DNA from: a virus
DNA: 39,944 nt
Direction: 5' to 3' (one strand)
Virus record (IMG/VR): IMGVR_UViG_3300018476_000009
Coordinates: 1 to 39,944 of that record
The first letter of the stretch is position 1. Every line of letters starts with the position of its first letter. The notes below the pieces were generated by a model that saw only the letters and a list, made by a program, of their open reading frames with translations, was not told the origin of the DNA and did no database searches. Made by a program: the position numbers and the translations under genes. Shown here in pieces: positions 3,476-16,703 of this stretch.

Positions 3476-4483
3476 ATGAGTGAGACCGCGGGCGCCCTGT
3501 CGGTGATTGAAGTGGACGGCATCGTGGCCGCCACGTCTCCCGGCCAGGAAGCGGACACGCGCGCGGCGCTGGCGTCTGCCGACGCCCCGATCGAGTCCCC
3601 GGCGGTGCGGGAGTCGCCGTCCCCGGAGTCTGGCGAGTCCGTTCCGCCTTCTTCGGACGTGACCCCAGACGCTGCCGCCACGACGACCGCTCCTGCGAAG
3701 CCGGGGAAACCTCGCAATGACCCCACGGCGCGGATGCTCGAGGCCACGCGCAAACTGGCGGTGGAGCGCGATGCCCGGATGGCCCTCGAGGCCCGCCTCG
3801 CGACGCTGGAATCCGAACGGCAGCAGACCCGCCAGCCGGAACGGACCCCGGAGCGCGTGCAAGGCGACAAGTTCCCGTCCTATGACGAGTATCTGCAGAC
3901 CCACCCCGACCAATCGTGGGACGACTGGAACGACGCCAAGATCGACTGGAAAGCCGACCAGAAAGTCTCCGCGTATCAGCGCAGTATCCAGGCGGAACGC
4001 GAAGAAGCCACACTGCGCGAGACGTGGAACGGCCACACCGAACGGCTCGACCACGCGCGCACGCATAAATATCCAGACTTTGACCAGATGGTCAAGACAG
4101 CGAACGCGACCTATGCCGCGTACGGGATTCATGAGTTTCCGCCCGTGATTCAGGACGCCGTGATCGGGTCCACCCAGTCCGACGACTTGCTCGCCTTCCT
4201 CGCGACGCATCCTGAGGAGGGAATCCATCTGACCGAACGCTTTGCGAAGCGTCCTGTTACAGATGCCGAATTTGTCCGCGACATTCTCGAAATGAAAGTG
4301 GCCGCGTCTGCTGGCGCCCGTACTGGATCAGCCGTCGCCCGCCCCTATCCACGCGCTGCCGCCCCACCTAATCCAGTTGGGAGTTCAGCCCCTGCGCCGT
4401 CCGTGACCGGCTTAGGCTCGCTGGACCCCGATGCCCACATCGAGGCGTACCGCAAGGCTGAAGCTGCGAAACGGAGGCGCTGA
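3476..4483 (+). CDS. putative scaffolding protein (335 aa)
   Basis: Lies immediately upstream of the coat gene. Acidic, Pro/Ala/Ser-rich N-terminus followed by helical charged segments (LAVERDARMALEARLATLESERQQ). The call rests on position and composition only. Confidence 0.55.
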   Translation: MSETAGALSVIEVDGIVAATSPGQEADTRAALASADAPIESPAVRESPSPESGESVPPSSDVTPDAAATTTAPAKPGKPRNDPTARMLEATRKLAVERDARMALEARLATLESERQQTRQPERTPERVQGDKFPSYDEYLQTHPDQSWDDWNDAKIDWKADQKVSAYQRSIQAEREEATLRETWNGHTERLDHARTHKYPDFDQMVKTANATYAAYGIHEFPPVIQDAVIGSTQSDDLLAFLATHPEEGIHLTERFAKRPVTDAEFVRDILEMKVAASAGARTGSAVARPYPRAAAPPNPVGSSAPAPSVTGLGSLDPDAHIEAYRKAEAAKRRR

Positions 4484-4497
4484 ATGAGGCGTCTCCT

Positions 4498-5718
4498 GTG
4501 GCGAATGAATTTCTCACGAACGACATCATCACCGTCCGCGCGTTGGCGGTGCTGGATAACACGCTGAACGCGACCAAGAGCATCAACCGCAATTACGACG
4601 ACCAGTTCAAGTTCGGGGGCGCGGTGTTGGGGCAGACCCTGAACATCCGCAAGCCCGCGCGCTTCATCGGCCGGCTCGGACAGGCCGCGAACATCGAAAG
4701 CATTCAGGAGACCTACGTGCCGCTCACGCTGGCCTATCAGCGCGGCATTGACACGCAGGTGTCGTCGCAGGATCTCGTCCTGAACATCGACGAGTACACC
4801 GACCGCATCCTGAAGCCGCAGATCGTGCGCCTCGCGAACCTCGTCAATCAGGACGTGTGCTCGCTGGCGCTGGGCGCGAACCAGGTCGTCGGCACCCCCG
4901 GCACCACGCCCACCTCGCTCGACACCTACTGGGGCGCGAAGACGAAGCTCGATAACGGCGCCGCCCCGAGTGGCGACCGCACGACGCTGCTCAGCCCGAT
5001 CGCGGAACAGAAGATCGGCAACGCGGTCTATACGAACTACAACCCGGCGCAGAACATCTCGAACATCTACGAAGAGGGCGAGATGGGCCGCGCGCTGGGG
5101 ACGATGTTCAAGATGGATCAGGGCGTCTATGTCCACACCGTGGGCACGCTCGCGGGCACGCCGCTCGTGGACGGCGCCACGCAGTCGGGCAGTTCCATCC
5201 TCACGAAGACGTGGACCTCGAGCACGCTGAACGCGGGCGATGTCGTCTCGTTCGACAACGTGTTCTACGTCAATCCGCAGACCTACCAGAGCACGGGCGC
5301 CCGCGCGCAGTTCGTCGTGACGCAGACCGTAACCGACACGGCCGGTGCGATGACGATCAGCATCAGCCCCGCGATGGTCGGCCCCGGCTCACCCTTGCAG
5401 AACGTCAATGCGCTGCCGGCCGATAACGCCGCGGTGTTCGTCTACGAAGTGGCCGCGGCCTCGTTCTCGACCATCACCGGCAAGTCCTCGCCGCAGAACA
5501 TGATGTTCAACAAGGACTTTGGCACGCTGGCCTGCGTCGATCTGCCGAAGCCGGATGGGACCGACAAATCCAGCCGTATGGCCTCGCGCAAGTCGGGGCT
5601 GTCGCTGCGCTATATCCGCGACTACATCGCGGTGACCGACCAGTGGATTCAGCGGTTTGACATCCTGTACGGCGTCACCGTCCTGCGGCAGGAACTCGTC
5701 TGCCGGATCGCGGGTTAG
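4498..5718 (+). CDS. major capsid protein, P22 coat-protein-like family (406 aa)
   Basis: The N-terminal pattern ...NDIITVRALAVLDNTLNATKSINRNYDDQFKFGGAVLGQTLNIRKPARF... matches my memory of P22_CoatProtein-family members. Size and position after the scaffold gene fit. Confidence 0.8.
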   Translation: MANEFLTNDIITVRALAVLDNTLNATKSINRNYDDQFKFGGAVLGQTLNIRKPARFIGRLGQAANIESIQETYVPLTLAYQRGIDTQVSSQDLVLNIDEYTDRILKPQIVRLANLVNQDVCSLALGANQVVGTPGTTPTSLDTYWGAKTKLDNGAAPSGDRTTLLSPIAEQKIGNAVYTNYNPAQNISNIYEEGEMGRALGTMFKMDQGVYVHTVGTLAGTPLVDGATQSGSSILTKTWTSSTLNAGDVVSFDNVFYVNPQTYQSTGARAQFVVTQTVTDTAGAMTISISPAMVGPGSPLQNVNALPADNAAVFVYEVAAASFSTITGKSSPQNMMFNKDFGTLACVDLPKPDGTDKSSRMASRKSGLSLRYIRDYIAVTDQWIQRFDILYGVTVLRQELVCRIAG

Positions 5719-5729
5719 GGGAGGACATC

Positions 5730-6290
5730 ATGGCACTCACCAAAACCACACTCGCGGGCGCCGTCACGGCCAATGCGACCACCGTCAAGCTGACCTCGGG
5801 GACCGGGGTGGCGAAGAAGATGCTGCTCATGCTGGACGGCGAGAAAATGCTCGTCACCGATGTCACGCTGTCGCCCACCGTGCAAGTCGCGCGGGGCGAA
5901 CAGGGCACGCTCGCCGCGGCCCACGCGAACCTCACGGCGGCCATCTACGGCGTGCCGTCCGACTTCACCACACCCAGCGGCGCCCCGTTTGTCAGCTACG
6001 GCGCGGACGGCGCGATCGCGATTCCGACCGTCGATACCACGATCTACCTGACCAAGGCGACCGCGGCGGCGATGACGCTGCTGGGACCGGCGCGTGACCA
6101 GACCAACGTGGTGACCATCATCGGCACCGTGGCCGTGGCGAACACCGTCACGTATCTCGCGGGTCTCTATGGCGACACGACCAGCAGCGATATTGCGACG
6201 TTCGCCGCCAAAGTCGGGGCGTCCATCACGATCAAAGCGCAGGGCGGCGTCTGGGGACCGCTCGCGACGGCGAACGTGACCATCGCCTAA
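5730..6290 (+). CDS. putative capsid decoration or head-fibre protein (186 aa)
   Basis: Strong RBS GGGGAGG. Follows the coat gene directly. The first ~75 aa are paralogous to the N-terminus of 6595..7098 (TTLA..LTS..V.V.RG..GT.A). Confidence 0.45.
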   Translation: MALTKTTLAGAVTANATTVKLTSGTGVAKKMLLMLDGEKMLVTDVTLSPTVQVARGEQGTLAAAHANLTAAIYGVPSDFTTPSGAPFVSYGADGAIAIPTVDTTIYLTKATAAAMTLLGPARDQTNVVTIIGTVAVANTVTYLAGLYGDTTSSDIATFAAKVGASITIKAQGGVWGPLATANVTIA

Positions 6291-6594: not shown

Positions 6595-7098
6595 ATGATG
6601 GCAACCGTCAACACGACCCTCGCGCGAGCCGCGGGCCTCAACGACCAGATTCTCTATCTGACCTCCTCGGCGACCGCCGCCCCAGGCGCCATCGTGGAGA
6701 AGGGCGCCGAGTTCGCCAAGGTGATCACCGTGCTGAATGCGGGCGCCGTGCGCGTGCAGCGCGGCGTGCTGGGCACCAGTGCGACCACGGGCGCGGCGTC
6801 GGACGCGGTGACCCTCGGCGATGTCGAGGACTTCCTGTCGGCCGCGCCGATCAGCGGCATCGCGGACGGCGCCCCGATGGTGGTCTTCCCGTCGAATCCT
6901 CCGGCCGGAGTCACGGCGGCGGCCGGCGATGTGGTGGGACCGGCGAGTGCGACGAGTGGGCGCATCGCGGTGTTCAGTGGCACCACGGGAAAGCTCATCG
7001 CGGATTCGGGCGTGACCGGCGTGACGGCGGGTCCGTTCACCACAATAAGTTCCATCAGGGTTGTCAACGGAATCGTGACGGTGCTGACGGGGTCGTAA
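6595..7098 (+). CDS. putative head spike or fibre protein (167 aa)
   Basis: Abuts the spike-base-like gene. N-terminus paralogous to 5730..6290. The remainder is Ala/Gly/Thr/Val-rich. Confidence 0.4.
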   Translation: MMATVNTTLARAAGLNDQILYLTSSATAAPGAIVEKGAEFAKVITVLNAGAVRVQRGVLGTSATTGAASDAVTLGDVEDFLSAAPISGIADGAPMVVFPSNPPAGVTAAAGDVVGPASATSGRIAVFSGTTGKLIADSGVTGVTAGPFTTISSIRVVNGIVTVLTGS

Positions 7099-7854
7099 AT
7101 GTCGATCACCGTCACGGCGCGCAGTCTGCTCACCGCGGCCTGTCAGAAGGTCGGAATCGTCGGCCAGGGCGAAACGCCTGAAGCGGCGACGATGCAGCAG
7201 GCGTTCGCCGCGCTCCAGCAGTTGATCGATTCGTGGACGACGCAGAGCCTCACCGTGCTCGTCGTGGAGCGGACCGTCTACACGCTCACCGCGAATCAGC
7301 AGTCCTACAGCATCGGGCCGACGACGGAGACACCCGACTTTGACACGGGGACGGCCGCGCGACCTCCCGTGATCCAGGGCGCGGGCCTCGTGCTGAACTA
7401 CACGACGCCGGTCACGGAGATTCCGCTGCAATCGCTCACCGACGAACAATACCGGCTGATCGGGGTGAAGGGGCAGACCTCGACGCAGCCGACGCAGTAC
7501 TACTACCAGCCGCTGGACCCGCTGGGCGAAGTGTGGCTCTGGCCCAATCCCACGACCGGGGTCAACGGGCTGGCGCTCTACACGCCGTATCTCACGCCGC
7601 AGTTCAGTGCGCTGTCCACCTATGTGGTGCTCCCGCCGGGGTATGCCCGCGCGCTCGAGTGGAACATGGCGCTGGAACTCTCCACACCGGCCTTCGGCGT
7701 GCCGCTGGACCCGCTGGTGGACCGCATGGCGACGACCAGCCTCGCGCAATTGAAACGCAGCAATTACAAGCCGAGTGATTTGAGTCTCGATGCGGCCCTG
7801 CAGCCGAGTGTGCCGGGAGGCAGCTATAACATCCTGTCTGACGGGAATGCCTGA
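7099..7854 (+). CDS. head-to-tail adaptor, P22 gp4-like (251 aa)
   Basis: N-terminus ARSLLTAACQKVGIVGQGETPEAATMQQAFAALQQLIDSWTTQ parallels P22 gp4 (DLVRAALRKLGV...MQDAVDDLEAMMAEWYQ, recalled from memory). Lies between the head genes and the hub gene. Confidence 0.6.
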   Translation: MSITVTARSLLTAACQKVGIVGQGETPEAATMQQAFAALQQLIDSWTTQSLTVLVVERTVYTLTANQQSYSIGPTTETPDFDTGTAARPPVIQGAGLVLNYTTPVTEIPLQSLTDEQYRLIGVKGQTSTQPTQYYYQPLDPLGEVWLWPNPTTGVNGLALYTPYLTPQFSALSTYVVLPPGYARALEWNMALELSTPAFGVPLDPLVDRMATTSLAQLKRSNYKPSDLSLDAALQPSVPGGSYNILSDGNA

Positions 7855-8981
7855 TGCCCCGGATCGCGATTCCCGGCCTCGCAGGACCGAGTAATCTCCT
7901 CGCCTCGGTCACGGTCAACGCCGACCGCACGATCAACTGGTATCCCGAAACCGCCACGCCCGGATCCCCGCTCGTCCAGAAGTGGCTGCGTCCCACACCG
8001 GGGGTGCGCGCCTTCGGTCTCTTTCCCGGCACGCCGATGCGCGGGCTGTTCGAGCTCGATGGGCGCTGTTTCGGCGTCGCGGGGATCTATTTCGGGGAGC
8101 TGCTCGCGGACGGCACCGTCATCAACACCGCGCTCGTGGCCGACGACGCGGACCATACGCCCGTGAGCTTCGCCAGCAACGGCTCGGCGGGCCATCAACT
8201 GCTCTTTACGTCAGCGGGCTTCGGCTACATCTTCGATCTGCTGACCAACGTCGTGACGCAGATCACCGACCCCGACTTTCCGGCGGATGTCTCGATGTGC
8301 GCGTTCATGGACGGCTATTTCCTCGTCCTGATTCGCGACACGCGCCGCGTGGCGTTCTCGGCGCTGGAGGACGGCACGAGCTGGGACGCGCTGGACGTGT
8401 TTGAACGCTCCATTGCCTCCGACAACATCGTGACGATGATCCGCACGCACCGGGATCTCTTGCTGCTCGGCTCGCAGACCTCGGAATCGTGGTCGGATAC
8501 CGGCGACGCGCTGACACCCTTTCAGCCCATTCAGGGCGTGCTGATGGAGCTCGGCTCGTCGGCGCCGTTCGGGGCCGTGCGGGCCGATAACAGCGTCGTC
8601 TTTCTCGTCAAGGACGAGCGCGGCACGGGCATCGCCTCGCGGCAGGAAGGCTATAGCGCGGTGCGGACGACCACCTACGGGATCGACCTGAAGATCCAGG
8701 CGGCGACCGACCTCGCGAGTGCCGTCGCGTTCGCCGCGCAGATCGACGGGCATCTCTGGGTGTCGTGGAACATCGAAGGTGTGGATACGACACTCGTCTG
8801 GGATGTCGCGGAACAGCAGTGGCACGAGCGCAGCCTCTGGGATTCGACGGCGTGCGTGTGGCAACACCACATTGGCAAATACCATTGCTTCGCCTTCGGT
8901 AAACACATTCTTGGCTCGCGGCTGAATGGCTGGACGTACCACTGGGACAGCGCCTACTTAGACGATGAGGTGTCGGCGTGA
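7854..8981 (+). CDS. tail hub protein, P22 gp10-like, N-terminal beta-propeller part only (375 aa)
   Basis: TGATG overlap. ...TINWYPETATPGSPLVQKWLRPTPGV... and the later ...ILGSRLNGWTYHWDSAYLDD parallel P22 gp10 as I recall it. The ORF ends where the gp10 C-terminal domain would begin. Its last 28 nt overlap the 3' end of the convergent gene 8954..9595. Confidence 0.6.
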   Translation: MPRIAIPGLAGPSNLLASVTVNADRTINWYPETATPGSPLVQKWLRPTPGVRAFGLFPGTPMRGLFELDGRCFGVAGIYFGELLADGTVINTALVADDADHTPVSFASNGSAGHQLLFTSAGFGYIFDLLTNVVTQITDPDFPADVSMCAFMDGYFLVLIRDTRRVAFSALEDGTSWDALDVFERSIASDNIVTMIRTHRDLLLLGSQTSESWSDTGDALTPFQPIQGVLMELGSSAPFGAVRADNSVVFLVKDERGTGIASRQEGYSAVRTTTYGIDLKIQAATDLASAVAFAAQIDGHLWVSWNIEGVDTTLVWDVAEQQWHERSLWDSTACVWQHHIGKYHCFAFGKHILGSRLNGWTYHWDSAYLDDEVSA

Positions 8982-9595
8982 CGTCGGTGACTGCGAACGG
9001 CGTAGACCGTCCAGATACTCACGCCATATTTCTCGGCCATCACCGCAGCGGAGGCACCGCTGGCGCGCATGTCCAGCACGGCGGCCTCTGTCAACTTCTG
9101 GCTGTAACTGACGCGTCTATTCTTGACCTGTTCTTTCGGCGTGGCCCAGCGGCAATTCTCAGCGGAATAGCCGAGATCGTTGTTCACCCGATCCAGCGAG
9201 TGCTGCGCGCTGGGTTTGCGCCCCATATCCGCGAAGAAGTGTACGAACGAGTGGCGCCAGCGGTCGCAGACCGTGATCCCTCGGCCGCCCCAATACTTCC
9301 ATTCCCGCGTGTTCGGATTGGTGCATCGGGCGAGCATTTGGGACCAGACGGTGTATTCAGGGGTGGGAGGATTGCTCTGCCCGTGCGTACGCATTGCGGC
9401 AGACACCTTTTCTCGGTGGAGGCAGCCACAACTGCGCGTATCACCTCGGCGCAGATTTTCACCGATCACCGTGGTCCGCTTGCCGCATTGGCATTGGCAC
9501 TCCCACGCCAGTTTTCCGCTCAGGCGTTTCTCGGACACGCCGATCACGTAGAGTCGGCCAAATGTGAGTCCGTCAAGAGGTTTCCGTGGTCGCAT
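8954..9595 (-). CDS. homing-endonuclease-like protein (degenerate HNH/AP2-type core plus C-terminal HTH) (213 aa)
   Basis: FGRL.V...W.CQCQCG...SCGC, then YWGGRGITVCDRW...F..DMG.KP...SLDRVNNDLGYSAENCRWATPKEQ, then LTEAAVLDMR...AEKYGVSIWTV. Opposite strand to all neighbours and visibly lower GC. Confidence 0.5.
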   Translation of the reverse strand: MRPRKPLDGLTFGRLYVIGVSEKRLSGKLAWECQCQCGKRTTVIGENLRRGDTRSCGCLHREKVSAAMRTHGQSNPPTPEYTVWSQMLARCTNPNTREWKYWGGRGITVCDRWRHSFVHFFADMGRKPSAQHSLDRVNNDLGYSAENCRWATPKEQVKNRRVSYSQKLTEAAVLDMRASGASAAVMAEKYGVSIWTVYAVRSHRRHADTSSSK

Positions 9596-9634
9596 ATTGC
9601 GAGTTTATCACCGTCTACATAAGGTAACCATGCT

Positions 9635-10117
9635 TTGGCTGATAACCTCGTCTCGCAGTCTCTAACCCCCGCCACGATTCCAGACGCCACGGCCATCGGG
9701 GCCGCACAGGGCAGTTTCAGTGGCGACACGGTCTATCTCGGCATCGGCCTCGTCGCCAAGTCCTCGGGCGCGGAAGGCGCGCGGGTCTTCACGCTGGTGG
9801 CGCCCGCCGAGAAGGTGGCGCTCAGTGTCACCGCGCTGCAAGTCACCGCGTCGGGCGATACGACGCTCGTCGCGAGCGGCACGCGGAAGTTGCTGCGCGT
9901 CGAAGCCTCCAACGCGCACGCGTCCACCGCCGTCGTCGTCGGCCTCAAGGTCTCCACGCTGAATAGCGGCGCGGTGTTCGGGAAGCGGTATCTCACCGCC
10001 GCTGGCGGGCAGACGACGTGGGATTTTTCGACCAACTATCTCCCGATCACCGCGGAGGCGATCGTCGCGAATCTGTCCGCGACCGGCACCGTGGAGATGA
10101 CGGCGTATTACGAGTGA
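9635..10117 (+). CDS. hypothetical beta-rich tail protein (160 aa)
   Basis: TTG start with AAGG 9 nt upstream. Ala/Thr/Val/Gly-rich. Its stop overlaps GTG 10114 of the next ORF (GTGA). Confidence 0.5.
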   Translation: MADNLVSQSLTPATIPDATAIGAAQGSFSGDTVYLGIGLVAKSSGAEGARVFTLVAPAEKVALSVTALQVTASGDTTLVASGTRKLLRVEASNAHASTAVVVGLKVSTLNSGAVFGKRYLTAAGGQTTWDFSTNYLPITAEAIVANLSATGTVEMTAYYE

Positions 10118-10521
10118 CTGCGAACTTAGTCTGGTGGTTTGGCGCGATGCAGACCGGCCACGCGACACCGGGACCGCCGGAGCCTGGGATTCGGGTGATT
10201 CGCCGCCAGCGCCAGTTCGCGCATCTCAATCAGACGCATCTGCTGCTCTTCATCGATCACCTGGAACTCTACATTCAGTCAGGCAAGGGGAATGCGACCG
10301 CACCCGATCCCCAGATGATGCTCCAGTACAGCAAAGATGGCGGGCGCACCTGGAGTGCCGAACGGTGGACGAGCGCGGGCAAGGTCGGCGAATACCGGCG
10401 CCGCCTCCGCTGGATGCAGCTCGGACAGGCCCGCAATTGGACGTTTCGCGTGACCGCGACCGACGCGACGATCTGGCATCTCGCGCAACTCTGGGCGACC
10501 GTGCGCGAGGGGAGCGCCTGA
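10114..10521 (+). CDS. stand-alone copy of the gp10-type C-terminal domain (135 aa)
   Basis: GTGA overlap. RVIRRQRQFAHLNQTHLLLFIDHLELYIQSGKGN...MMLQYSKDGGRTWSAERWTSAGKVGEYRRRLRWMQLGQARNWTFRV parallels the end of P22 gp10 (...CFDLEVESSTG...LSATTDGINYG...YDKRVLWKRVGRIRRLIGFKLRV, from memory). About 73% identical to the C-terminus of 10523..12136. Confidence 0.55.
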   Translation: MTANLVWWFGAMQTGHATPGPPEPGIRVIRRQRQFAHLNQTHLLLFIDHLELYIQSGKGNATAPDPQMMLQYSKDGGRTWSAERWTSAGKVGEYRRRLRWMQLGQARNWTFRVTATDATIWHLAQLWATVREGSA

Positions 10522-10522
10522 C

Positions 10523-12136
10523 GTGGCGCTCTATAGCTGCGTCAAGGTCTTTGACGACGCCACGGGCACGACGCCGTTTACCCAAACGGTGACGGGCATC
10601 ACCGATGGGCGCACGGGCGTGCCGTTTCTCGGCCATACGTTCCTGACATGGAGCTGCACGTCGCCGCTGAATGAACTGGTGCAGTTCCCGGCCTACGGCA
10701 CGCTGTTCAATTCCGGCATCGCGACGGGCGCGACGCACGGCGGCTCGCAGGGCACGGGCGACGTGAGCGGGTTTGTGGGCCTCAAGACCGTGTCGGGCTG
10801 CGGCGGGGCGCGCTATAGCTTCATCACCAACGGCCCGTATCCCTTCTTTGGCGGCGACATCCTCGACTTTGGCTATATCACGGCCGTGGCGTCGGGCAGT
10901 TTCACGATTACCTGGGACAAGAAGACCACGCCGTTTACCACGGTCGCCCGCATGGTGCTGGTGCTGGGCGGCGACGGCTGGAACGTGGACATCACCACGG
11001 GCACCTGGAACAGTGTGCATCCGACCACGGCGGCACCGCAGGGCGTGCTGTTGCCCGTGTCGCTGGCCTATTACACGAACGCGGCGCCCTCGGCCGCGAC
11101 CGGCGCGGGCGGCGCGTTGCAGGGCATCGGCTGGGACACCATCGACGGCGTGCGCGCGGGCACCACGTACAAGCTGCAAACCCAAAACGCGACGGTGCAG
11201 CTCCACGACCGCGTGCCGGTCGTTATCAACTCGGAGACCGTCCCGCCGCAGCAGGAATCCGGCGTGCCGATTGTCGGGACGTGGGGGCCGACCTCGTGGA
11301 CGGGGACCGGAGCCGGTGGCCTGTCTGGCGCCCCGGCGATGGGGCAGATCGCGTTCAGCGGGGACGGGATCGTCTGTAAGGCGGGCACCTTTGACGCGCC
11401 GCTCGTGGACGGCGCCATGACGATCGACCTCGGCCTGGACCCGCAGGTGATCGTGGTGGCATCAAATGGCTACCCGGTCTCCACGGCCATCCAGGCACCC
11501 GTCTGCGGGCTGTCCATCGGCGTGACCGACCGGACCCACGTCGCCAGTGTCTGGACGGGGGAATCGACCATCGGCCCGTCGCCCACCGTCGAGGGCATGA
11601 ACCTGCTCTCGGACCAGTCTCTGACGGTCAGCGGCACGGCGGTGGGCGCAGGGACGGTCCTGCACAATCGGATGACGATGGCCCCGATCACGGGGGACGA
11701 TGGCCTCGCGACGTTCACGTTCACCGACACGGACGGGACGGCGCCGAACGTGATCTGGTTTGCGGTGGGCGTCGAGGCCCATCCGGGGCCGCCGCCGCCC
11801 GACCGGCGCGTCATTCGGCGGTTGCGGCAGTTCGCGCACCTGAACGAGACGAATCTGCTCCTGTTTGTCGATCAGCTCGAGGTGTATCTGCAGGCCGGGG
11901 TGGGCAACGCGGAGGCGCCAGACCCGCAGATGATGCTCCAGTACTCGAAAGACGGCGGCGAGACGTGGAGCGCCGAACGCTGGATGTCGGCGGGGAAGGT
12001 CGGGGAGTTCACCAAGCGGCTGCGGTGGATGCAACTGGGCCAGTCCCGTGATTGGGTGTTCCGCGTGGTCGCCAGTGACGCCGTCGCGTGGGATCTCGTA
12101 GAAATGTGGGCCAATGTCAGGCAAGGGTCGAGTTAG
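10523..12136 (+). CDS. tail protein with a unique 420-aa N-terminal region fused to a gp10-type C-terminal domain (537 aa)
   Basis: GTG start with GAGGGGAG upstream. The last ~117 aa (PGPPPPDRRVIRRLRQFAHLNETNLLLFVDQLEVYLQAGVGN...) are paralogous to 10114..10521. Confidence 0.6.
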   Translation: MALYSCVKVFDDATGTTPFTQTVTGITDGRTGVPFLGHTFLTWSCTSPLNELVQFPAYGTLFNSGIATGATHGGSQGTGDVSGFVGLKTVSGCGGARYSFITNGPYPFFGGDILDFGYITAVASGSFTITWDKKTTPFTTVARMVLVLGGDGWNVDITTGTWNSVHPTTAAPQGVLLPVSLAYYTNAAPSAATGAGGALQGIGWDTIDGVRAGTTYKLQTQNATVQLHDRVPVVINSETVPPQQESGVPIVGTWGPTSWTGTGAGGLSGAPAMGQIAFSGDGIVCKAGTFDAPLVDGAMTIDLGLDPQVIVVASNGYPVSTAIQAPVCGLSIGVTDRTHVASVWTGESTIGPSPTVEGMNLLSDQSLTVSGTAVGAGTVLHNRMTMAPITGDDGLATFTFTDTDGTAPNVIWFAVGVEAHPGPPPPDRRVIRRLRQFAHLNETNLLLFVDQLEVYLQAGVGNAEAPDPQMMLQYSKDGGETWSAERWMSAGKVGEFTKRLRWMQLGQSRDWVFRVVASDAVAWDLVEMWANVRQGSS

Positions 12137-12810
12137 GGCAGATGCTTCCAAATCCTTTTTGCCCGAATCGCCTTAATCGTGGAGTCCGTGACGCCATATT
12201 GGCGTGCGAGCGTCGTCGCGCCCACGTCGCATCCGCGGATGAACATCACATCGGGCGTCGTCAACTTCGCGCGGCCATGTTGTTCGCCACGTCGATAGAG
12301 ACCAATGCGCTGCGCGTGGTGCGCGTTCTGCTTCGCCGTCACATACTCCAAATTGTCGATGCGGTTGTCCAGTTTGTTGCCGTTCTTGTGGTTGACCCAC
12401 AGCACACTGGGTCCGAGAAACGCCGCCGCCACGAGTCGATGCACACTGGCGAATTTGACCTTGTACTGGCAGTACAACATCACGGCCGGATAGCCGGTCG
12501 AATTGAGGGTCGTCCGTATGGCGATGCGTCCCAGGCGCGTGCTGCGAATGCGGCCGAAGTTGGACGCCTCATAGCGACCGAGGAAACCCGGATCGACCAC
12601 AGGGCGCCAGATTTCTGGCGACGGCATCGGCGCGATCTCAGGGAGATGCTTCCAGCCTTCGCGCGTCCGAATCCGGCGAATCGCATCGCCGCAGACGCCA
12701 TAGCGAGTCGCCAGGAATCGCTGCGAGAGCGTGCTCTGGCGAATCGCATAGACATCGGCCTCGGTCAGTTTGGCTTTCGGATGATCGGTGCCGCGCGTCC
12801 CTTTCGGCAT
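12133..12810 (-). CDS. HNH homing endonuclease (NUMOD4-like plus HNH_3-like core flanked by two HTH modules) (225 aa)
   Basis: WRPV...YEASNFGRIRS, then VHRLVAAAFLG...VNHKNGNKLDNRIDNLEYVTAKQN. Flanking repeats read AKLTEADVYAIRQ...YGV...IRRIRTREGWKHLP and AKLTTPDVMFIRG...YGVTDSTIKAIRAKRIWKHLP. Start taken at the internal ATG 12810 because the upstream extension overlaps the + fibre gene. Stop codons of this gene and of 10523..12136 overlap. Confidence 0.8.
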   Translation of the reverse strand: MPKGTRGTDHPKAKLTEADVYAIRQSTLSQRFLATRYGVCGDAIRRIRTREGWKHLPEIAPMPSPEIWRPVVDPGFLGRYEASNFGRIRSTRLGRIAIRTTLNSTGYPAVMLYCQYKVKFASVHRLVAAAFLGPSVLWVNHKNGNKLDNRIDNLEYVTAKQNAHHAQRIGLYRRGEQHGRAKLTTPDVMFIRGCDVGATTLARQYGVTDSTIKAIRAKRIWKHLP

Positions 12811-12843
12811 ACGTTCTAGTTTAACGTATTGAAGGCGATCTAG

Positions 12844-13251
12844 TTGGCCATCAAACGATTTAATATCTCGGCGCAAGAGCCAGCATTGAACCCAGACGGG
12901 AAATTCACGGTCTTTTGGTACAATGTTTTCAATCGCCTGTCGGAGTTCGGCGGCGGCACGTTTGTGCAGTCGGTGGGCGCGTCGTCGCCGCTCAGTTCGA
13001 CGGGCGGCGACACGCCGGTCATCGGCCTGAATGACAGCGCCGTGACGCCGGGAACGTATGGCGACGCGACGCACGTCGGGCAGTTCACCGTCGACCAGAA
13101 GGGGCTGCTGCAGTTCGCGCAGAACGTGGAGATTACGGGCGGGGGCGGCGACGGCTACTGGAGCGTAATTACGAATGGAGATCCTGTAACCCCAGAATTA
13201 CTGTTCGACAGCAACGGAGACGCGATTATGGGATTTGTGCCGACGCCATGA
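12844..13251 (+). CDS. tail fibre protein, short (135 aa)
   Basis: TTG start. LSSTGGDTPVIGLNDSAVTPGTYGDATHVGQFTVDQKGLLQFAQNVEI is a typical phage fibre repeat. N-terminal W..VFNRL motif. Confidence 0.6.
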   Translation: MAIKRFNISAQEPALNPDGKFTVFWYNVFNRLSEFGGGTFVQSVGASSPLSSTGGDTPVIGLNDSAVTPGTYGDATHVGQFTVDQKGLLQFAQNVEITGGGGDGYWSVITNGDPVTPELLFDSNGDAIMGFVPTP

Positions 13252-13439
13252 CGAATCCTACCGCCACGATCTTCGTGCCCTACATTGCGATTGATGACCT
13301 GATACAGGCAGGCACCCGTGCCGCCCAACCGGACGCGACGGAGGTCACCGAGGGCACGCTCTACTCGGTGACGGATGAAGGCAATCTGATCGAGCGCAGT
13401 AACGGCACGGTCTGGGAACAATACGGCCCCACGCCATGA
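13248..13439 (+). CDS. stand-alone fibre C-terminal module (63 aa)
   Basis: ATGA overlap. TATIFVPYIAIDDLIQAGTRAAQPDATEVTEGTLYSVTDEGNLIERSNGTVWEQY is about half identical to the last 59 aa of 14793..16703. Confidence 0.55.
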   Translation: MTNPTATIFVPYIAIDDLIQAGTRAAQPDATEVTEGTLYSVTDEGNLIERSNGTVWEQYGPTP

Positions 13440-14249: not shown

Positions 14250-14774
14250 TCACCCATGACAGGCTTTGCAGTGGCGTCGCCCCTGTCTGTCCAGACGCGT
14301 GTTGCGCGCGTCGTAGGGATGTCCACGGGGACAGTGCGTCTTGGCCGCGTTGCGCGCGGCAGCCGTGGCTGGGCCGATCCCGCGAATGATGTTCTCGCGC
14401 ACCGTCGTCGGTTCGAGGTGGGCGGGGTTGACGCACGCCCGAGAGGTGCAGCCATTGGCCTTGACGTGGTCGAGTGTCATGCCTGTCGGAATGGGGCCGA
14501 CGAGCAATTCATAGACGGCACGATGGGCTTTCAGTTGTCGAATGACTCCGTTGACCGTTTCGGCTGTGTGGCCGTAGCCATCTTTGTCAATCGCGCCCGT
14601 CCACAACCAACACGACGGAGTCTTTCGGATGTGCGTCCAGATGCGCTCTGCCAGCGGGATACTCGGACGCCCGAGTGGCCGTCCTGTTCGCCGTGCGGCG
14701 TTTCGCTGCTCTCGCCATTCGGGATCTGCGGCGTTGCGTCGGTAGTAAGCCAGTTCTGCTGCGGTGCGTCGCAC
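14250..14774 (-). CDS. HNH endonuclease (174 aa)
   Basis: CWLWTGAIDKDGYGH...AHRAVYELLVGPIP.GMTLDHVKANGCTSRACVNPAHLEPTTVRENI plus a C-terminal CPRGH...CKACH zinc motif. GTG start. Opposite strand to neighbours. Confidence 0.8.
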   Translation of the reverse strand: MRRTAAELAYYRRNAADPEWREQRNAARRTGRPLGRPSIPLAERIWTHIRKTPSCWLWTGAIDKDGYGHTAETVNGVIRQLKAHRAVYELLVGPIPTGMTLDHVKANGCTSRACVNPAHLEPTTVRENIIRGIGPATAAARNAAKTHCPRGHPYDARNTRLDRQGRRHCKACHG

Positions 14775-14782
14775 GACGCCGG

Positions 14783-14791
14783 ATTATAACA
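14783..14791 (-). promoter_or_regulatory. extended -10 element TGTTATAAT directly upstream of the HNH gene start
   Basis: The reverse complement of 14783-14791 reads TGTTATAAT. Only 8 nt separate it from GTG 14774 and there is no SD, suggesting a leaderless or near-leaderless transcript. Confidence 0.45.
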
Positions 14792-14792
14792 T

Positions 14793-16703
14793 ATGGCATC
14801 CCCAGTCATGTGTTGTGGCTTCGAGTGCGGCGTCATCGCCCCGACGGGCGGGAAGCACTGGTCGATCATCCTTGGCTCCCCGACGATCTCCACCGCCATC
14901 GTCAGGAGCGGGGCACGGTCCCTGCGCTGTAATCTCACGGCCTCCACCTGGACGGCGGTCGAGACGCCGCTCTTCGCAGGCTCCCGACACATCGGACGCT
15001 TCTACCTCTACTTCGCGACGTTGCCCACAGCGGACTGCCGACTGGTCTATCAGACTGGTGGGGCGGGGCCGGGTATTGCCTTTCAGGCGTCCACGGCGAA
15101 GATTTTCGCGACCATTGGCGGCACGCTGAGCGGGGCTGGCACGGGCGTCGCGGTGACGACCGGCGTCTGGTATCGCATCGACTACGACTTCAATCTCAAT
15201 ACCGCAGGCACCGACACCTGTGACGTGCAGGTCGATGGGGTGGCCTGCACACAAGCCTCCGGCACGGGGGACAGCACGGCCCAACCCTCGGATCAATACG
15301 GGGTGCGTCCCTACAGCGGGTCCATCACGGCCGATGTCTACTTCGATGACGTGCTGATCAGCGAAACCGCTGCGGACTACCCGCTCGGTGCAGGCTTCGT
15401 CAACCACTTCACGCCGACCTCGGACGGCACACACAACGTCGTCACGGCGTCAGGCTTTCTCAGAACCCTCACCGCCACGGCGATCACGAACAGCACGACC
15501 GACGTCAACACGCTGGTGAGCAAGGTGCCGTTGACGACCACGGTGGGCACCTTCGTCAACATGGCCGCTCCGGCTGGAGCCGCCGAATACGTGGAGTGCG
15601 TGATCGGTCCAGCGAGTGGCATCAGCACCCCGACCACGGGGCCGCGCCATGTCCAGGTGCTGGCGGCGGTCCATCAAGCGGCGACCGGCACGGGCAACAT
15701 GGAGGTGCGGCTGAACGACGGCGGCACGATGGGGTCGCCACCGGTCCTCTCCCGCACGACGATTGCCGGGACGACGACGATGAGTTTCGGCGGCGCAGGC
15801 TACCGCAATGCGCCCTCGACGGGAGCCGCGTGGACCGCCGCGAAGTTCAACGCGCTGCGCGTGCGCTTCGGCTCACCGGCGGCAGTCGATGTGAACCCCG
15901 ACCAGTATTTCGACGGGCTGCTGATCGAGGCCGAGTTCGCGCCGTCCGCGACGACGCAGGCGGTCACGGGTGGCACCATCGCCTCAGGGTCTGCGGCCAG
16001 CGCGCCGACAGTGTCTGCCGACCAGAGCGTCACGACCGCCGCGATCGCGTCGGGTTCCACAGCGACCGCACCCACGTCGGTCCAACTGATTCAGAGCATC
16101 ACCAGCGGCACCGTCGCGTCAACCGCTGCGCTGACCGCGCCGAGCGTCGCGGTGGGTCCGGTGGCCGTGACTGGCGGCACGCGCCCCACGACGCTGGCCG
16201 TCACCGCGCCCAGCGTGGCGCCGGGACCAGTCGCCGTCACGGGCGCGGCCATCGCCTCGACACTCGCGGTCACCGCCCCGACGACGGTCAGCCCCGGCGC
16301 CGTCACCGTCACCACCGGCACCATCAGCAGCACGGCGAGCCTCGCCGCCCCGACGCTCACAGTCGGCCCGGTGGCCGTCACGCTCGGCACGGTCTCGAGC
16401 ACGACGGTGCTCGACCCGCCAACCGTCGCCACGGTCTCGACGGCCCTCGCCGTGACCAGCGGCACGATCAGCAGCACGGCGCTCCTGCGACCCCCATCCG
16501 TCAGTGGCGGCGCGGTGGTGACCCGGCCGCTGACGATCTTCACGCCCTACAGCGGCTGGGCGGCGCTCACACTGCGCGGGAATCGCGCTACACAACCTGC
16601 GGCGAGCGCCGTCATTGCTGGTAGCCTCTACAGCGTGATCGATGAGGGCTTCCGCATCGAGCGCAGCACCGGACTCACCTGGGAACCCTTCGCGACGCCA
16701 TGA
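14793..16703 (+). CDS. large tail fibre or receptor-binding protein: jelly-roll-like N-terminal domains, 23-aa tandem repeats, conserved C-terminal module (636 aa)
   Basis: GFECG...RSGARSLR...WYRIDYDF...VQVDGV...VYFDDVLI resembles ConA/LamG-like phage domains. Residues 389-575 are repeats of about 23 aa. The last ~59 aa are shared with 13248..13439. Confidence 0.65.
   Translation: MASPVMCCGFECGVIAPTGGKHWSIILGSPTISTAIVRSGARSLRCNLTASTWTAVETPLFAGSRHIGRFYLYFATLPTADCRLVYQTGGAGPGIAFQASTAKIFATIGGTLSGAGTGVAVTTGVWYRIDYDFNLNTAGTDTCDVQVDGVACTQASGTGDSTAQPSDQYGVRPYSGSITADVYFDDVLISETAADYPLGAGFVNHFTPTSDGTHNVVTASGFLRTLTATAITNSTTDVNTLVSKVPLTTTVGTFVNMAAPAGAAEYVECVIGPASGISTPTTGPRHVQVLAAVHQAATGTGNMEVRLNDGGTMGSPPVLSRTTIAGTTTMSFGGAGYRNAPSTGAAWTAAKFNALRVRFGSPAAVDVNPDQYFDGLLIEAEFAPSATTQAVTGGTIASGSAASAPTVSADQSVTTAAIASGSTATAPTSVQLIQSITSGTVASTAALTAPSVAVGPVAVTGGTRPTTLAVTAPSVAPGPVAVTGAAIASTLAVTAPTTVSPGAVTVTTGTISSTASLAAPTLTVGPVAVTLGTVSSTTVLDPPTVATVSTALAVTSGTISSTALLRPPSVSGGAVVTRPLTIFTPYSGWAALTLRGNRATQPAASAVIAGSLYSVIDEGFRIERSTGLTWEPFATP
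15957..16517 (+). repeat. in-frame tandem repeat, about 8 units of ~69 nt (23 aa), inside the fibre gene
   Basis: Example units: VAVTGGTRPTTLAVTAPSVAPGP / VAVTGAAIASTLAVTAPTTVSPGA / VTVTTGTISSTASLAAPTLTVGP / VAVTLGTVSSTTVLDPPTVATVS. Confidence 0.75.

Follow-up and report, generated by a model that had tools for sequence, protein, structure and literature searches.

Fission of a P22 gp10-type tail hub gene in uncultured short-tailed phages, with a candidate anchoring role for its C-terminal domain

In the virus studied here (the window, a DNA stretch of 39,944 nucleotides) and in its relatives, the gene for the tail hub has, as sequence comparisons show, undergone fission at the linker between the beta-propeller and the C-terminal domain (C-domain). 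The C-domain is now the C-terminal end of the product of the next gene, X-C, where it follows a variable region, X, whose length ranges from 250 to 750 aa. We consider it rather probable that a large clade of uncultured, P22-like phages with short tails inherited such a bipartite tail hub from its ancestor, and that the C-domain anchors variable appendages in trans. The features discussed are collected in Table 1.

Table 1. Features of the hub module and its surroundings in the window
Feature	Position	Strand	Remarks
Probable head-to-tail adaptor, gp4-like, 251 aa	7099..7854	+	directly upstream of hub gene
Hub N-part, 375 aa	7854..8981	+	beta-propeller portion of P22 gp10/Sf6 gp8-type hub, without C-terminal domain
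Insertion 1, free-standing HNH gene (putative homing endonuclease), ORF 8954-9595	segment 8982..9632	-	
p160	9635..10117	+	disordered N-terminal ~60 aa, C-terminal jelly-roll knob ~100 aa (predicted)
p135, free-standing copy of hub C-domain, 135 aa	10114..10521	+	domain ~10195-10512
X, variable N-terminal part of the 537-aa X-C, all-beta (predicted), ~420 aa plus linker	10523..11809	+	
C, hub C-domain fused to X	11810..12136	+	copy conserved in all split-hub relatives
Insertion 2, second free-standing HNH gene (putative homing endonuclease)	segment 12137..12843; stop 12133, probable ATG 12810	-	
Conserved downstream gene, 135 aa	12844..13251	+	marks far edge of module

The hub gene and the two copies of its C-terminal domain

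All open reading frames (ORFs) listed in the initial annotation were found where it had placed them. It had read the 375-aa ORF as the N-terminal, propeller part of gp10, ending at a domain boundary, and had recognized the missing domain twice downstream. These points were borne out by a PHROGs profile search, in which the three ORFs matched complementary parts of the gp10 family profile, phrog_578 ('head closure Hc3'): ORF 7854-8981 covered positions 1-364 of 486 (E 6.9e-56), ORF 10114-10521 positions 370-473 (E 6.6e-17), and residues 431-535 of the 537-aa ORF (10523-12136) positions 369-472 (E 8.1e-16). Since the match of the N-part ends at 364 and the C copies begin at 369-370, the stop codon lies exactly on the domain boundary. 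Among PDB sequences, the N-part matched the 'stabilization protein' 9vyg (E 4e-19) and 7eeq (E 9e-15), and C of X-C matched residues 367-438 of the 7eeq chain (E 0.0065). No match to PF11134 was obtained for the 375-aa ORF in a local Pfam scan, which is discrepant with the assignment of this family to a 98% homologue in precomputed tables. The product of the upstream gene matched phrog_12985 (E 5e-36); the position of this gene equals that of the annotated 'tail adaptor' of phage DSL-LC05.

A BLASTP comparison of the two C-domain copies, in p135 and in the 537-aa protein, gave 89 identical residues of 130 (E 5e-65); over the last 112 codons, 81 residues (72%) and 223 of 336 nucleotides (66%) are identical, close to the earlier manual counts of 85 of 117 residues and about 70% in DNA. 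Since synonymous sites are saturated (pS 0.75), an assembly repeat can be dismissed in favour of an old duplication, as had been proposed. In a tree, p135 nests inside the C-domain clade of the window and three IMG/VR loci, L006, L003 and L009. A hydrophobic strand (NLVWWFGAM) and a linker rich in proline come before its C-domain, and its GTG start overlaps the stop of p160 (GTGA), a coupling that is conserved. Between the window and L006, dN/dS was 0.043 for the hub N-part, 0.087 for both p160 and p135 (at dS 0.5-0.66, the upper value being that of p135) and 0.138 for the C-domain of X-C.

Weak BNR/Asp-box-like and FNIII-like Pfam matches, all below threshold, were noted in the C-domain, and because of the former a glycan-related role may be kept in mind. 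When X-C was modelled as a monomer, X was confident and the C-domain reached pLDDT of 40-55, which would fit a fold dependent on a partner, although the alignment of 9 sequences may alone explain the low value.

The neighbour of p135, p160, is probably a small fibre or knob protein. Residues 62-160 were predicted by AF2 with pLDDT of ~90, and the top Foldseek matches were jelly-roll folds (STMV coat, nucleoplasmin, and also the Pgp3 TNF-like domain; best E 4e-4, TM ~0.4). The p160-type knob also terminates proteins of 121-275 aa carrying fibre-like 'LPLPSGAAT' repeats; p160 and the first 420 aa of the 537-aa protein are unrelated. The p160 and p135 pair is a lineage-specific addition that arose via C-domain duplication, and both members are under purifying selection.

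The split arrangement in relatives

The initial annotation was not aware of such an arrangement for P22-like hubs. This holds in so far as we found no description in the literature of a split hub, or of the C-domain as an ordinary separate protein, for the gp10 type; the arrangement itself, however, is not unique to the window. Homologues of the hub N-part form more than 100 protein clusters of about 367-392 aa and 38-98% identity, and a hub protein of 375-aa class (~372-390 aa) is routine in all relatives of at least 38% identity. The split was seen in about 50 loci of IMG/VR, a viral contig collection, and in every locus with N-part identity of at least 38% N and C lie in different ORFs. Loci at 37% or below encode a fused protein of 464-509 aa, as do the GenBank phages DSL-LC05 and P26218; more distant and all characterised relatives likewise have a fused protein of ~475 aa.

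None of the split loci with at least 3.5 kb of downstream sequence was without the C-domain, and wherever a split genome had enough sequence, the domain was retained in one copy or more, adjoining or near the hub gene. In relatives at 87%, 80% and 53% N-part identity X-C follows N directly, and the p160/p135 module is missing from those at 87% and 80%. The domain lies at the very C-terminal end of proteins that range from 116 to 1380 aa and whose N-terminal parts are unrelated. Among the best 150 representatives of 50% clusters, 104 were X plus C, about 11 free C and 32 fused. Duplication of the C-domain has recurred independently in other lineages: in L011/L012, a bare C-domain of 111 aa comes after X-C, and each copy has the other as its nearest relative, and in L089 fibre proteins of the p160 type stand beside two free C-domain proteins. 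In L027, L035, L045 and L063 the split lies one strand further into the C-domain.

Co-variation of the hub parts and the variable region

Identity of the window to L006, L003, L009 and L004 was 98, 87, 81 and 53% for N, 94, 76, 71 and 45% for C, and 48, 33, 34 and 26% for X; for the adaptor, identity was 83-87% in L003 and L009. Among 595 pairs drawn from 35 split loci, N and C identities were correlated with r = 0.84, and of the 530 pairs in which N was below 60%, only 36 showed detectable homology of X. The central 620 nt of X have no DNA match in L006. Thus, as read from these comparisons, C co-evolves with the hub N-part, while X is swapped or rapidly diverging. The initial suggestion that the hub C-domain is an exchangeable docking module agrees with a domain that is portable, confined to the extreme C-terminus and co-evolving with N while X is swapped.

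X is predicted to be all-beta (AF2 pLDDT mostly 80-95); its comparison with PDB folds gave no significant match, and no receptor-binding or enzymatic fold was recognisable. Elsewhere its homologues carry a divergent hub C-domain, or else C-termini that are not of hub type. X is probably a surface or host-interaction module, a reading drawn solely from its evolutionary behaviour and position, and the fast-changing X-C would then probably bind the host.

Alternative readings and the proposed bipartite hub

A separate problem is the role of the reverse-strand genes. The one next to the hub gene had been called endonuclease-like and is HNH (phrog_374, E 7e-61); its last 28 nt overlap the hub gene end, its GC3 is 0.71 as compared with 0.84-0.88 in neighbouring genes, and its 651-bp segment takes the place of 7 bp in L006 and L007 (hub N-part 98% identical). 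Another such gene, missed in the initial annotation, adjoins the 3' end of the 537-aa ORF (Pfam HNH_3, E 8.6e-13; NUMOD4, E 2.3e-10). The X-C stop in L006 overlaps the start of the next gene, hence the whole insertion 2 segment is absent there; the conserved downstream gene has its homologues immediately behind X-C, both in L006 (69% aa) and in L003. L006, L007 and L010 (N-part 98%) lack both HNH genes and keep the order N, p160, p135, X-C, and both insertions have exact boundaries that fall between genes. Examples of mobile endonuclease genes that interrupt a gene or lie between two are found in nrdA of phage Aeh1 and between genes 39 and 60 of T4. By analogy, a homing endonuclease could have broken an intact gp10-type gene, the downstream C copies being by-products of homing-associated recombination, and the location of the two HNH genes, directly after the truncated hub ORF and directly after X-C, would suit such an event. 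We give it practically no credence, as it is refuted by HNH-free relatives: those at 98% have the same stop codon and downstream genes, and relatives at 87%, 80% and 53%, together with dozens of HNH-free IMG/VR loci, are also split. The idea, implied in the initial annotation, that the window is exceptional, its hub gene ending around an endonuclease gene that had inserted there, is thus not supported. As the 98% relatives lack them, both genes are recent homing-endonuclease insertions at intergenic sites and not the cause of the split. They resemble free-standing phage HNH endonucleases (T4 mob genes, I-HmuI-like, NUMOD-containing) in HNH and NUMOD4 motifs, in presence or absence at exact intergenic sites in near-identical genomes and in lower GC3, but they lie on the opposite strand in a late structural operon, and their cleavage and homing are putative. 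Scarcely more probable is that N and X-C are joined in expression, by programmed frameshifting, readthrough or ribosome hopping, into one N-X-C polypeptide, so that the split is only apparent. Overlaps of the N stop and X-C start (ATGA, GTGA or TGATG) in many relatives might hint at this; however, they are ordinary translational coupling, the spacing varies from a 4-nt overlap to a ~160-nt gap and up to several intervening genes, the relative frame varies too, the window has 1.5 kb including a reverse-strand gene between N and X-C, and the halves of the phiRIO-1 hub migrate as separate virion proteins (PMC4819975).

Two further explanations are unlikely, though less so. According to one, p135, and perhaps p160, would be a leftover of the recombination that replaced an older X-C, with no role in the virion, and N with the 537-aa X-C would be all that counts. 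p135 retains a trace of the final beta-strand of an X region (NLVWWFGAM vs NVIWFAVGV), which is expected if most of X was deleted, and the absence of the module from the 87% and 80% relatives means that it is dispensable for that tail type. On the other hand, purifying selection on p160 and p135 is as strong as that on the C-domain of X-C, the GTGA coupling is conserved, and free C-domains beside X-C or p160-type proteins arose independently in L011/L012 and L089 and recur among the best 150 matches. Slightly more credible, yet still doubtful, is the view that the C-domain is a general-purpose C-terminal module (e.g. BNR/Asp-box glycan-binding, or trimerisation/chaperone) reused by tail fibres, that the 375-aa propeller is a complete hub alone and that X-C is attached otherwise. 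The sub-threshold Pfam matches, the great diversity of the proteins bearing the domain and the X homologues with other C-termini speak for it. It is opposed by the homology of the domain to the C-terminus of fused hubs, including the solved structure 7eeq, by its retention beside or near the hub gene in every split genome with enough sequence, by divergence of C that tracks N and not X, and by the finding that the Sf6 C-terminal extension is an integral part of the adaptor-contacting apical domain (PMC9728967).

Both parts of the hub belong by profile to the family of P22 gp10 and Sf6 gp8 (PF11134 'Phage_stabilise', PHROG 578; structures Sf6, cyanophage Pam1 7EEQ and 9VYG), with which they share the position directly after the adaptor gene and a propeller plus a C-terminal extension that helps to form the apical domain. 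Characterised members, however, are single chains of ~440-480 aa, whereas here there are two polypeptides, the C-part standing behind a ~420-aa variable region, and a free 135-aa protein in addition. A split hub has been published for tubular tail B of Pseudoalteromonas phage phiRIO-1 (gp44 and gp40, both virion components), and in VpV262 the displaced C-terminal piece, gp52, is encoded two genes downstream; the authors called the phiRIO-1 split uncommon (Hardies et al. 2016, PMC4819975). In phiRIO-1, too, a hub/nozzle protein of a short-tailed phage lies in two genes with others between; but it belongs to another homology group (T7/phiRIO-1 type), and neither fusion of the C-piece to variable modules nor duplication was reported (PMC4819975). 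Xylella phage Xfas53, an isolated P22-like phage, has a gp10 homologue with an inserted region, gp36 (642 aa), and the remainder of the C-domain in a separate overlapping ORF, gp37 (72 aa). There, however, the break falls inside the C-domain, after the first strands, and the inserted region is attached to the N-part; this split, unmarked in the annotation, is an independent event. Receptor-binding proteins with conserved anchors (P22 gp9 head-binding domain, T7 gp17 N-terminus, K1-5 and CBA120 tailspike adaptors) likewise combine an anchor co-evolving with the core and a horizontally exchanged module, and the expected location of X-C, the hub/adaptor junction, is similar. X-C differs in polarity, its anchor being C-terminal and a piece of the hub fold instead of a separate binding domain, and in that its function is inferred.

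The apical domain of Sf6 gp8, wedged between two adaptor subunits, is built by both terminal extensions (N and C) of the hub protomer together (PMC9728967). The C-terminal stretch of PF11134 would correspond to this 'lamin B1-like' apical domain, by the description in that paper and not by residue-level superposition (PMC9728967). In the bipartite hub that we propose, the C-domain of X-C would find its partner in trans, in the N-terminal extension on the 375-aa chain, and, completing the apical domain, would therefore anchor variable appendages. Six copies of X would be fixed in this way at the hub/adaptor junction, the site where the tailspikes of P22 and Sf6 dock, and X would serve as an integral host-interaction module that can be swapped. 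By the same docking chemistry p135, probably with the p160 knob protein, might mount a second appendage, which would either share the six hub sites or fill six adaptor grooves left free. Thus, the last domain of the hub would have been turned into the anchor of a variable protein, with a spare free anchor in the lineage of the window.

Division of the tail hub between separate genes

The window derives from soil and has a GC content of 65%. The ORFs named in the initial annotation are all present in it where that annotation had placed them, and profile searches with the three hub-related ones assigned each to a single family, represented by one N-terminal part and two C-terminal copies. The 375-aa product (N), corresponding to the propeller portion of the P22 gp10/Sf6 gp8-type tail hub, matched the PHROG profile phrog_578 ('head closure Hc3', the P22 gp10 family) over positions 1-364 of 486 (E 6.9e-56). 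The 135-aa product (p135) matched positions 370-473 (E 6.6e-17), and residues 431-535 of the 537-aa protein (X-C, in which a region X of about 420 aa precedes the hub C-terminal domain, C) matched positions 369-472 (E 8.1e-16). Since coverage by N ceases at 364 and that by the C copies begins at 369 or 370, N ends exactly at the inter-domain linker, in agreement with the earlier suggestion that the gene stops at the domain boundary. A single polypeptide of about 440-490 aa holding both parts is not encoded in the window, as N stops at 8981 and C sits on two other ORFs. The halves jointly span a full-length homologue (profile positions 1-364 and 369-473), and both are covered in alignments with fused homologues of 464-509 aa.

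N also matched the PDB entries 9vyg (E 4e-19) and 7eeq (E 9e-15), and C matched residues 367-438 of 7eeq (E 0.0065). PF11134 is listed in precomputed tables for a 98% homologue of N, whereas a local Pfam-A scan of the 375-aa ORF returned no family even at E 0.1, a discrepancy which probably reflects the library version or the threshold. The gene order in relatives is portal (P22_portal), coat (P22_CoatProtein), an adaptor-like gene and the hub. Further downstream, between tail and ejection-protein-like genes, the otherwise plus-strand late region of the window is interrupted by a cluster of minus-strand ORFs of high GC3.

Features of the window discussed in the text
Feature	Coordinates	Strand	Remarks
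Adaptor-like ORF	7099-7854		abuts the hub ORF
N, 375 aa	7854-8981		phrog_578, N-terminal part
HNH gene 1	8954-9595	minus	phrog_374, E 7e-61
HNH insertion 1	8982-9632		7 bp in relative L006
12-nt repeat GTGACTGCGAAC, first copy	8987-8998		after hub stop, inside HNH insertion 1
p160, 160 aa	9635-10117		predicted jelly-roll knob
p135, 135 aa	10114-10521		free C copy
12-nt repeat GTGACTGCGAAC, second copy	10114-10125		at the p135 start codon
X-C, 537 aa	10523-12136		X followed by C
HNH gene 2	12133-12843	minus	stop at 12133; HNH_3, E 8.6e-13 (above the curated cut-off), and NUMOD4; directly after the 537-aa gene
HNH insertion 2	12137-12843		missing in L006
Minus-strand cluster	about 14500-16550	minus	ORFs 14531-14992, 15377-15637, 15800-16075 and 16091-16543

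Distribution of the split and its candidate causes

The arrangement, considered at first to be peculiar to the window, proved to be a property of all relatives in which N is at least 38% identical. Among 5.8 billion proteins searched, N homologues of 367-392 aa formed more than 100 clusters at 38-98% identity, and forms of 483-484 aa appeared only at about 40% identity and below. When 78 IMG/VR loci were scanned with a C-domain HMM, N and C lay on different ORFs without exception wherever N was at least 38% identical; in these loci C terminates an ORF of 353-865 aa further downstream, in most cases the next one, and no split locus with enough downstream sequence lacked it. Loci at 37% identity or less encode the fused form, of 464-509 aa. 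Fused hubs are also encoded by the GenBank phages DSL-LC05 and Rhodoferax P26218 and by the best cultured relatives, which are about 30% identical; Acetobacter phage phiAX1, considered as a possible split next to a glucanotransferase, turned out to have an ordinary hub of 479 aa. A DNA search of window positions 7000-13300 against GenBank phages gave no match, no close relative being in culture, and a scan of genome collections for prophage relatives gave a single distant one, at 30%, in a MAG of Candidatus Kapaibacterium. An exhaustive HMMER search with p135 returned 3870 representatives of 50%-identity clusters at E <=1e-3; in 104 of the best 150, the domain lies at the very end of a protein of 187-1380 aa that lacks the hub N-part, and the remainder comprises about 11 free domains, 32 fused hubs and 2 unrelated BNR-repeat proteins.

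The position of the break is not uniform. In a sub-clade of four loci (L027, L035, L045 and L063), the X ORF stops just past the first strand of C ('...FPIRRLRRWMP', then the stop codon), and an ATGA-coupled ORF of 103 aa completes the domain; 2-4 small ORFs of 150-190 aa lie there between N and X (e.g. L027, 9227-12549). In Xylella phage Xfas53 (NC_013599, 1912-4055), an isolated phage, the break in the gp10 homologue falls within C itself. Its gp36 (642 aa) contains the N-part with the initial strands of C and has an insert of about 240 aa, and the remainder of C is encoded by an overlapping ORF, gp37 (72 aa), whose annotation reads no more than 'conserved phage protein'. Thus, breaks in the hub fold have arisen at several points, each time around C, which argues that the hub pieces assemble non-covalently.

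What could have produced such an arrangement? Its source in an assembly repeat or a frameshift artefact was rejected, as was programmed recoding as an explanation of the split. p135 and the C of X-C share 89 of 130 residues (E 5e-65), and over the last 112 codons of both copies 81 of the 112 residues and 223 of the 336 bases are identical, with synonymous sites saturated. Such saturation speaks against an assembly repeat, and, judged from this divergence, the duplication of C is real and old, as had been proposed. We asked whether an exact 12-nt repeat, GTGACTGCGAAC, might mark a past recombination event, but set this aside because L006 does not conserve it and has GTGACCGGGAAC instead.

The initial annotation had placed an endonuclease-like gene after N, with an implied link to the arrangement; we identified it as an HNH gene by its PHROG match, the Pfam scan giving none. 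A second HNH gene, missed at that stage, lies beyond X-C; its start is probably the ATG at 12810. The longest call, an ORF of 313 aa reaching 13074, runs too far, into the antisense strand of the following gene. Splitting of the hub by a homing endonuclease was rejected, because three relatives known from metagenomic contigs, whose N is 98% identical (L006, L007 and L010), keep the order N (375 aa), 160 aa, 135 aa, 540 aa and next gene with no endonuclease gene in this stretch. In DNA alignments both insertions are missing, with flanks aligned, from L006/L007 and from L003, and both lie exactly between genes; the X-C stop of L006 overlaps the next start codon. The uninterrupted junctions of L006 are at about 1540-1560 and 4055-4070. 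GC3 is 0.71 in both HNH genes versus 0.84-0.88 in their neighbours. L003, in turn, has a GIY-YIG/NUMOD3 endonuclease gene (5169-5807) between the coat gene and the next, where the window (5718/5730) has only an 11-bp spacer; sibling phages thus differ in their homing endonucleases and in the intergenic sites occupied within the structural module. On these alignments the HNH genes are probably ordinary free-standing homing-endonuclease polymorphisms, and the presence of a mobile endonuclease gene beside a truncated gene is no evidence of its having caused the truncation.

Variation of N, C and X, and the additional p160-p135 module

The three regions differ strongly in conservation. Identity between the window and L006, L003, L009 and L004 amounts to 98, 87, 81 and 53% for N, to 94, 76, 71 and 45% for C, and to 48, 33, 34 and 26% for X. 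Compared with L006 as DNA, X shows no similarity in its central 620 nt and is 77-85% identical on both sides of them. Among 35 non-redundant split loci (595 pairs), the identities of N and C are correlated (r = 0.84); of the 530 pairs in which N is below 60%, only 36 show detectable homology of X, and its median identity is about 50% even where N is at least 80%. Moreover, proteins with a homologue of the window X end in a divergent hub C-domain in the case of P0123 and P0126, and in non-hub C-termini in the case of P0124 and P0125. Read from these comparisons, the pattern is that of a conserved anchor and an exchangeable distal module. The mosaicism and rapid evolution relative to the tail core that would be expected of a receptor-binding protein are seen for X and, in that its knob recurs in fibre-like proteins of another phage type, for p160. 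The earlier proposal that C may serve as an exchangeable docking module gains comparative support from the co-variation of N with C and the swapping of X.

The predicted structure of X is confident, all-beta and two-lobed. No Pfam or PHROG function was found for X, and neither X nor p160 showed a recognisable receptor-binding or depolymerase fold or family. Foldseek comparison of the X-C model with the PDB gave nothing significant (best E 4e-3, TM 0.1), and with BFVD it gave weak matches to a DUF7483 protein and to several uncultured-phage 'gp10' proteins of 500-650 aa; such entries in UniProt/BFVD, which bear the label 'P22 Gp10, DNA-stabilising', are probably X-C proteins that went unrecognised. 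A PHROG scan of ten other ORFs of the window recognised no separate tailspike or needle.

A separate problem is the additional module formed by p160 and p135, which is present only in the closest relatives of the window. It is absent from L003, L009 and L004 (N 87%, 80% and 53%), where a C-bearing protein of 514-536 aa immediately follows N with overlapping stop and start codons. Where present, the GTGA overlap of the two genes is conserved, and dN/dS is 0.087 for each at dS 0.5-0.66, indicating purifying selection. In a neighbour-joining tree without support values p135 nests within the C clade of the window, L006, L003 and L009, which suggests duplication within this lineage; p135 also retains a remnant of the final X strand, together with a proline-rich linker. 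The p160 protein has no similarity to X and is predicted to have a disordered N-terminus and a confident knob, a generic jelly-roll. The same knob ends proteins of 121-275 aa with fibre-like 'LPLPSGAAT' repeats, one of them encoded among the tail genes of another type of phage; the knob thus occurs in more than one tail architecture. That protein (258 aa; L090, 7001-7777) is on a contig which also encodes a 1066-aa protein and then tail-like proteins of 250, 280 and 718 aa. Independent parallels to the module exist: in L011 and L012 a bare C-domain of 111 aa comes after X-C, this copy and that of X-C being each other's nearest relatives, in L089 two free C-domain proteins are interleaved with p160-type fibre proteins, and the protein P0165 has two tandem C-domains.

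A possible role of C in trans

The hub protomer of Sf6 consists of a six-bladed propeller and an apical domain built jointly by the N- and C-terminal extensions; this domain wedges between two adaptor subunits, and tailspike N-domains bind nearby (PMC9728967). The most economical model would have C, supplied by X-C, pair with the conserved extension at the N-terminus of the 375-aa protein, so that the apical domain would be rebuilt and X tethered at the hub/adaptor junction. Competition between p135 and X-C for the six hub sites might then follow; alternatively, p135 might occupy those six grooves of a twelve-fold adaptor that a six-fold hub does not fill. In the monomer model of X-C the pLDDT of C is 40-55 versus 80-95 for X, which is compatible with, although not diagnostic of, a partner-dependent apical domain. 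We propose, tentatively and as a reading that is rather doubtful at present, that the gp10 C-domain acts as a plug supplied in trans, which completes the apical domain only if another protein provides it and wires interchangeable host-recognition modules into the hub/adaptor junction, two paralogous plugs (X-C, and p135 with the p160 knob) giving two different appendages per tail.

A split podovirus hub is already known. In phiRIO-1, gp44 and gp40 together make up the tubular tail B homologue, and both halves were found in virions by SDS-PAGE and mass spectrometry; in VpV262 the C-terminal piece is encoded two genes downstream, and Hardies et al. call such splits uncommon (PMC4819975). The phiRIO-1 hub resembles that of the window in consisting of two separately translated halves. 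The phiRIO-1 and VpV262 splits belong to a homology group other than the gp10 type, the phiRIO-1/T7 tubular tail B and gp10 groups having been aligned over the central domain only (PMC4819975), and they involve neither variable fusions nor duplication. No account of a split hub of the gp10 type emerged from our literature search on PF11134, split gp10 and Xfas53 gp36/gp37.

If C does dock in trans, a large uncultured P22-like group mounts variable appendages by splitting the hub fold and not via a dedicated tailspike-binding domain. This would explain why proteins of 500-1400 aa receive the automated label 'gp10, DNA-stabilising', would provide a natural split-protein pair for tail engineering, and would make the host-range determinant findable by sequence, as the protein ending in the hub C-domain. 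Should the proposed function of C as a plug hold true, it would represent an undescribed way for short-tailed phages to attach and diversify their receptor-binding proteins.
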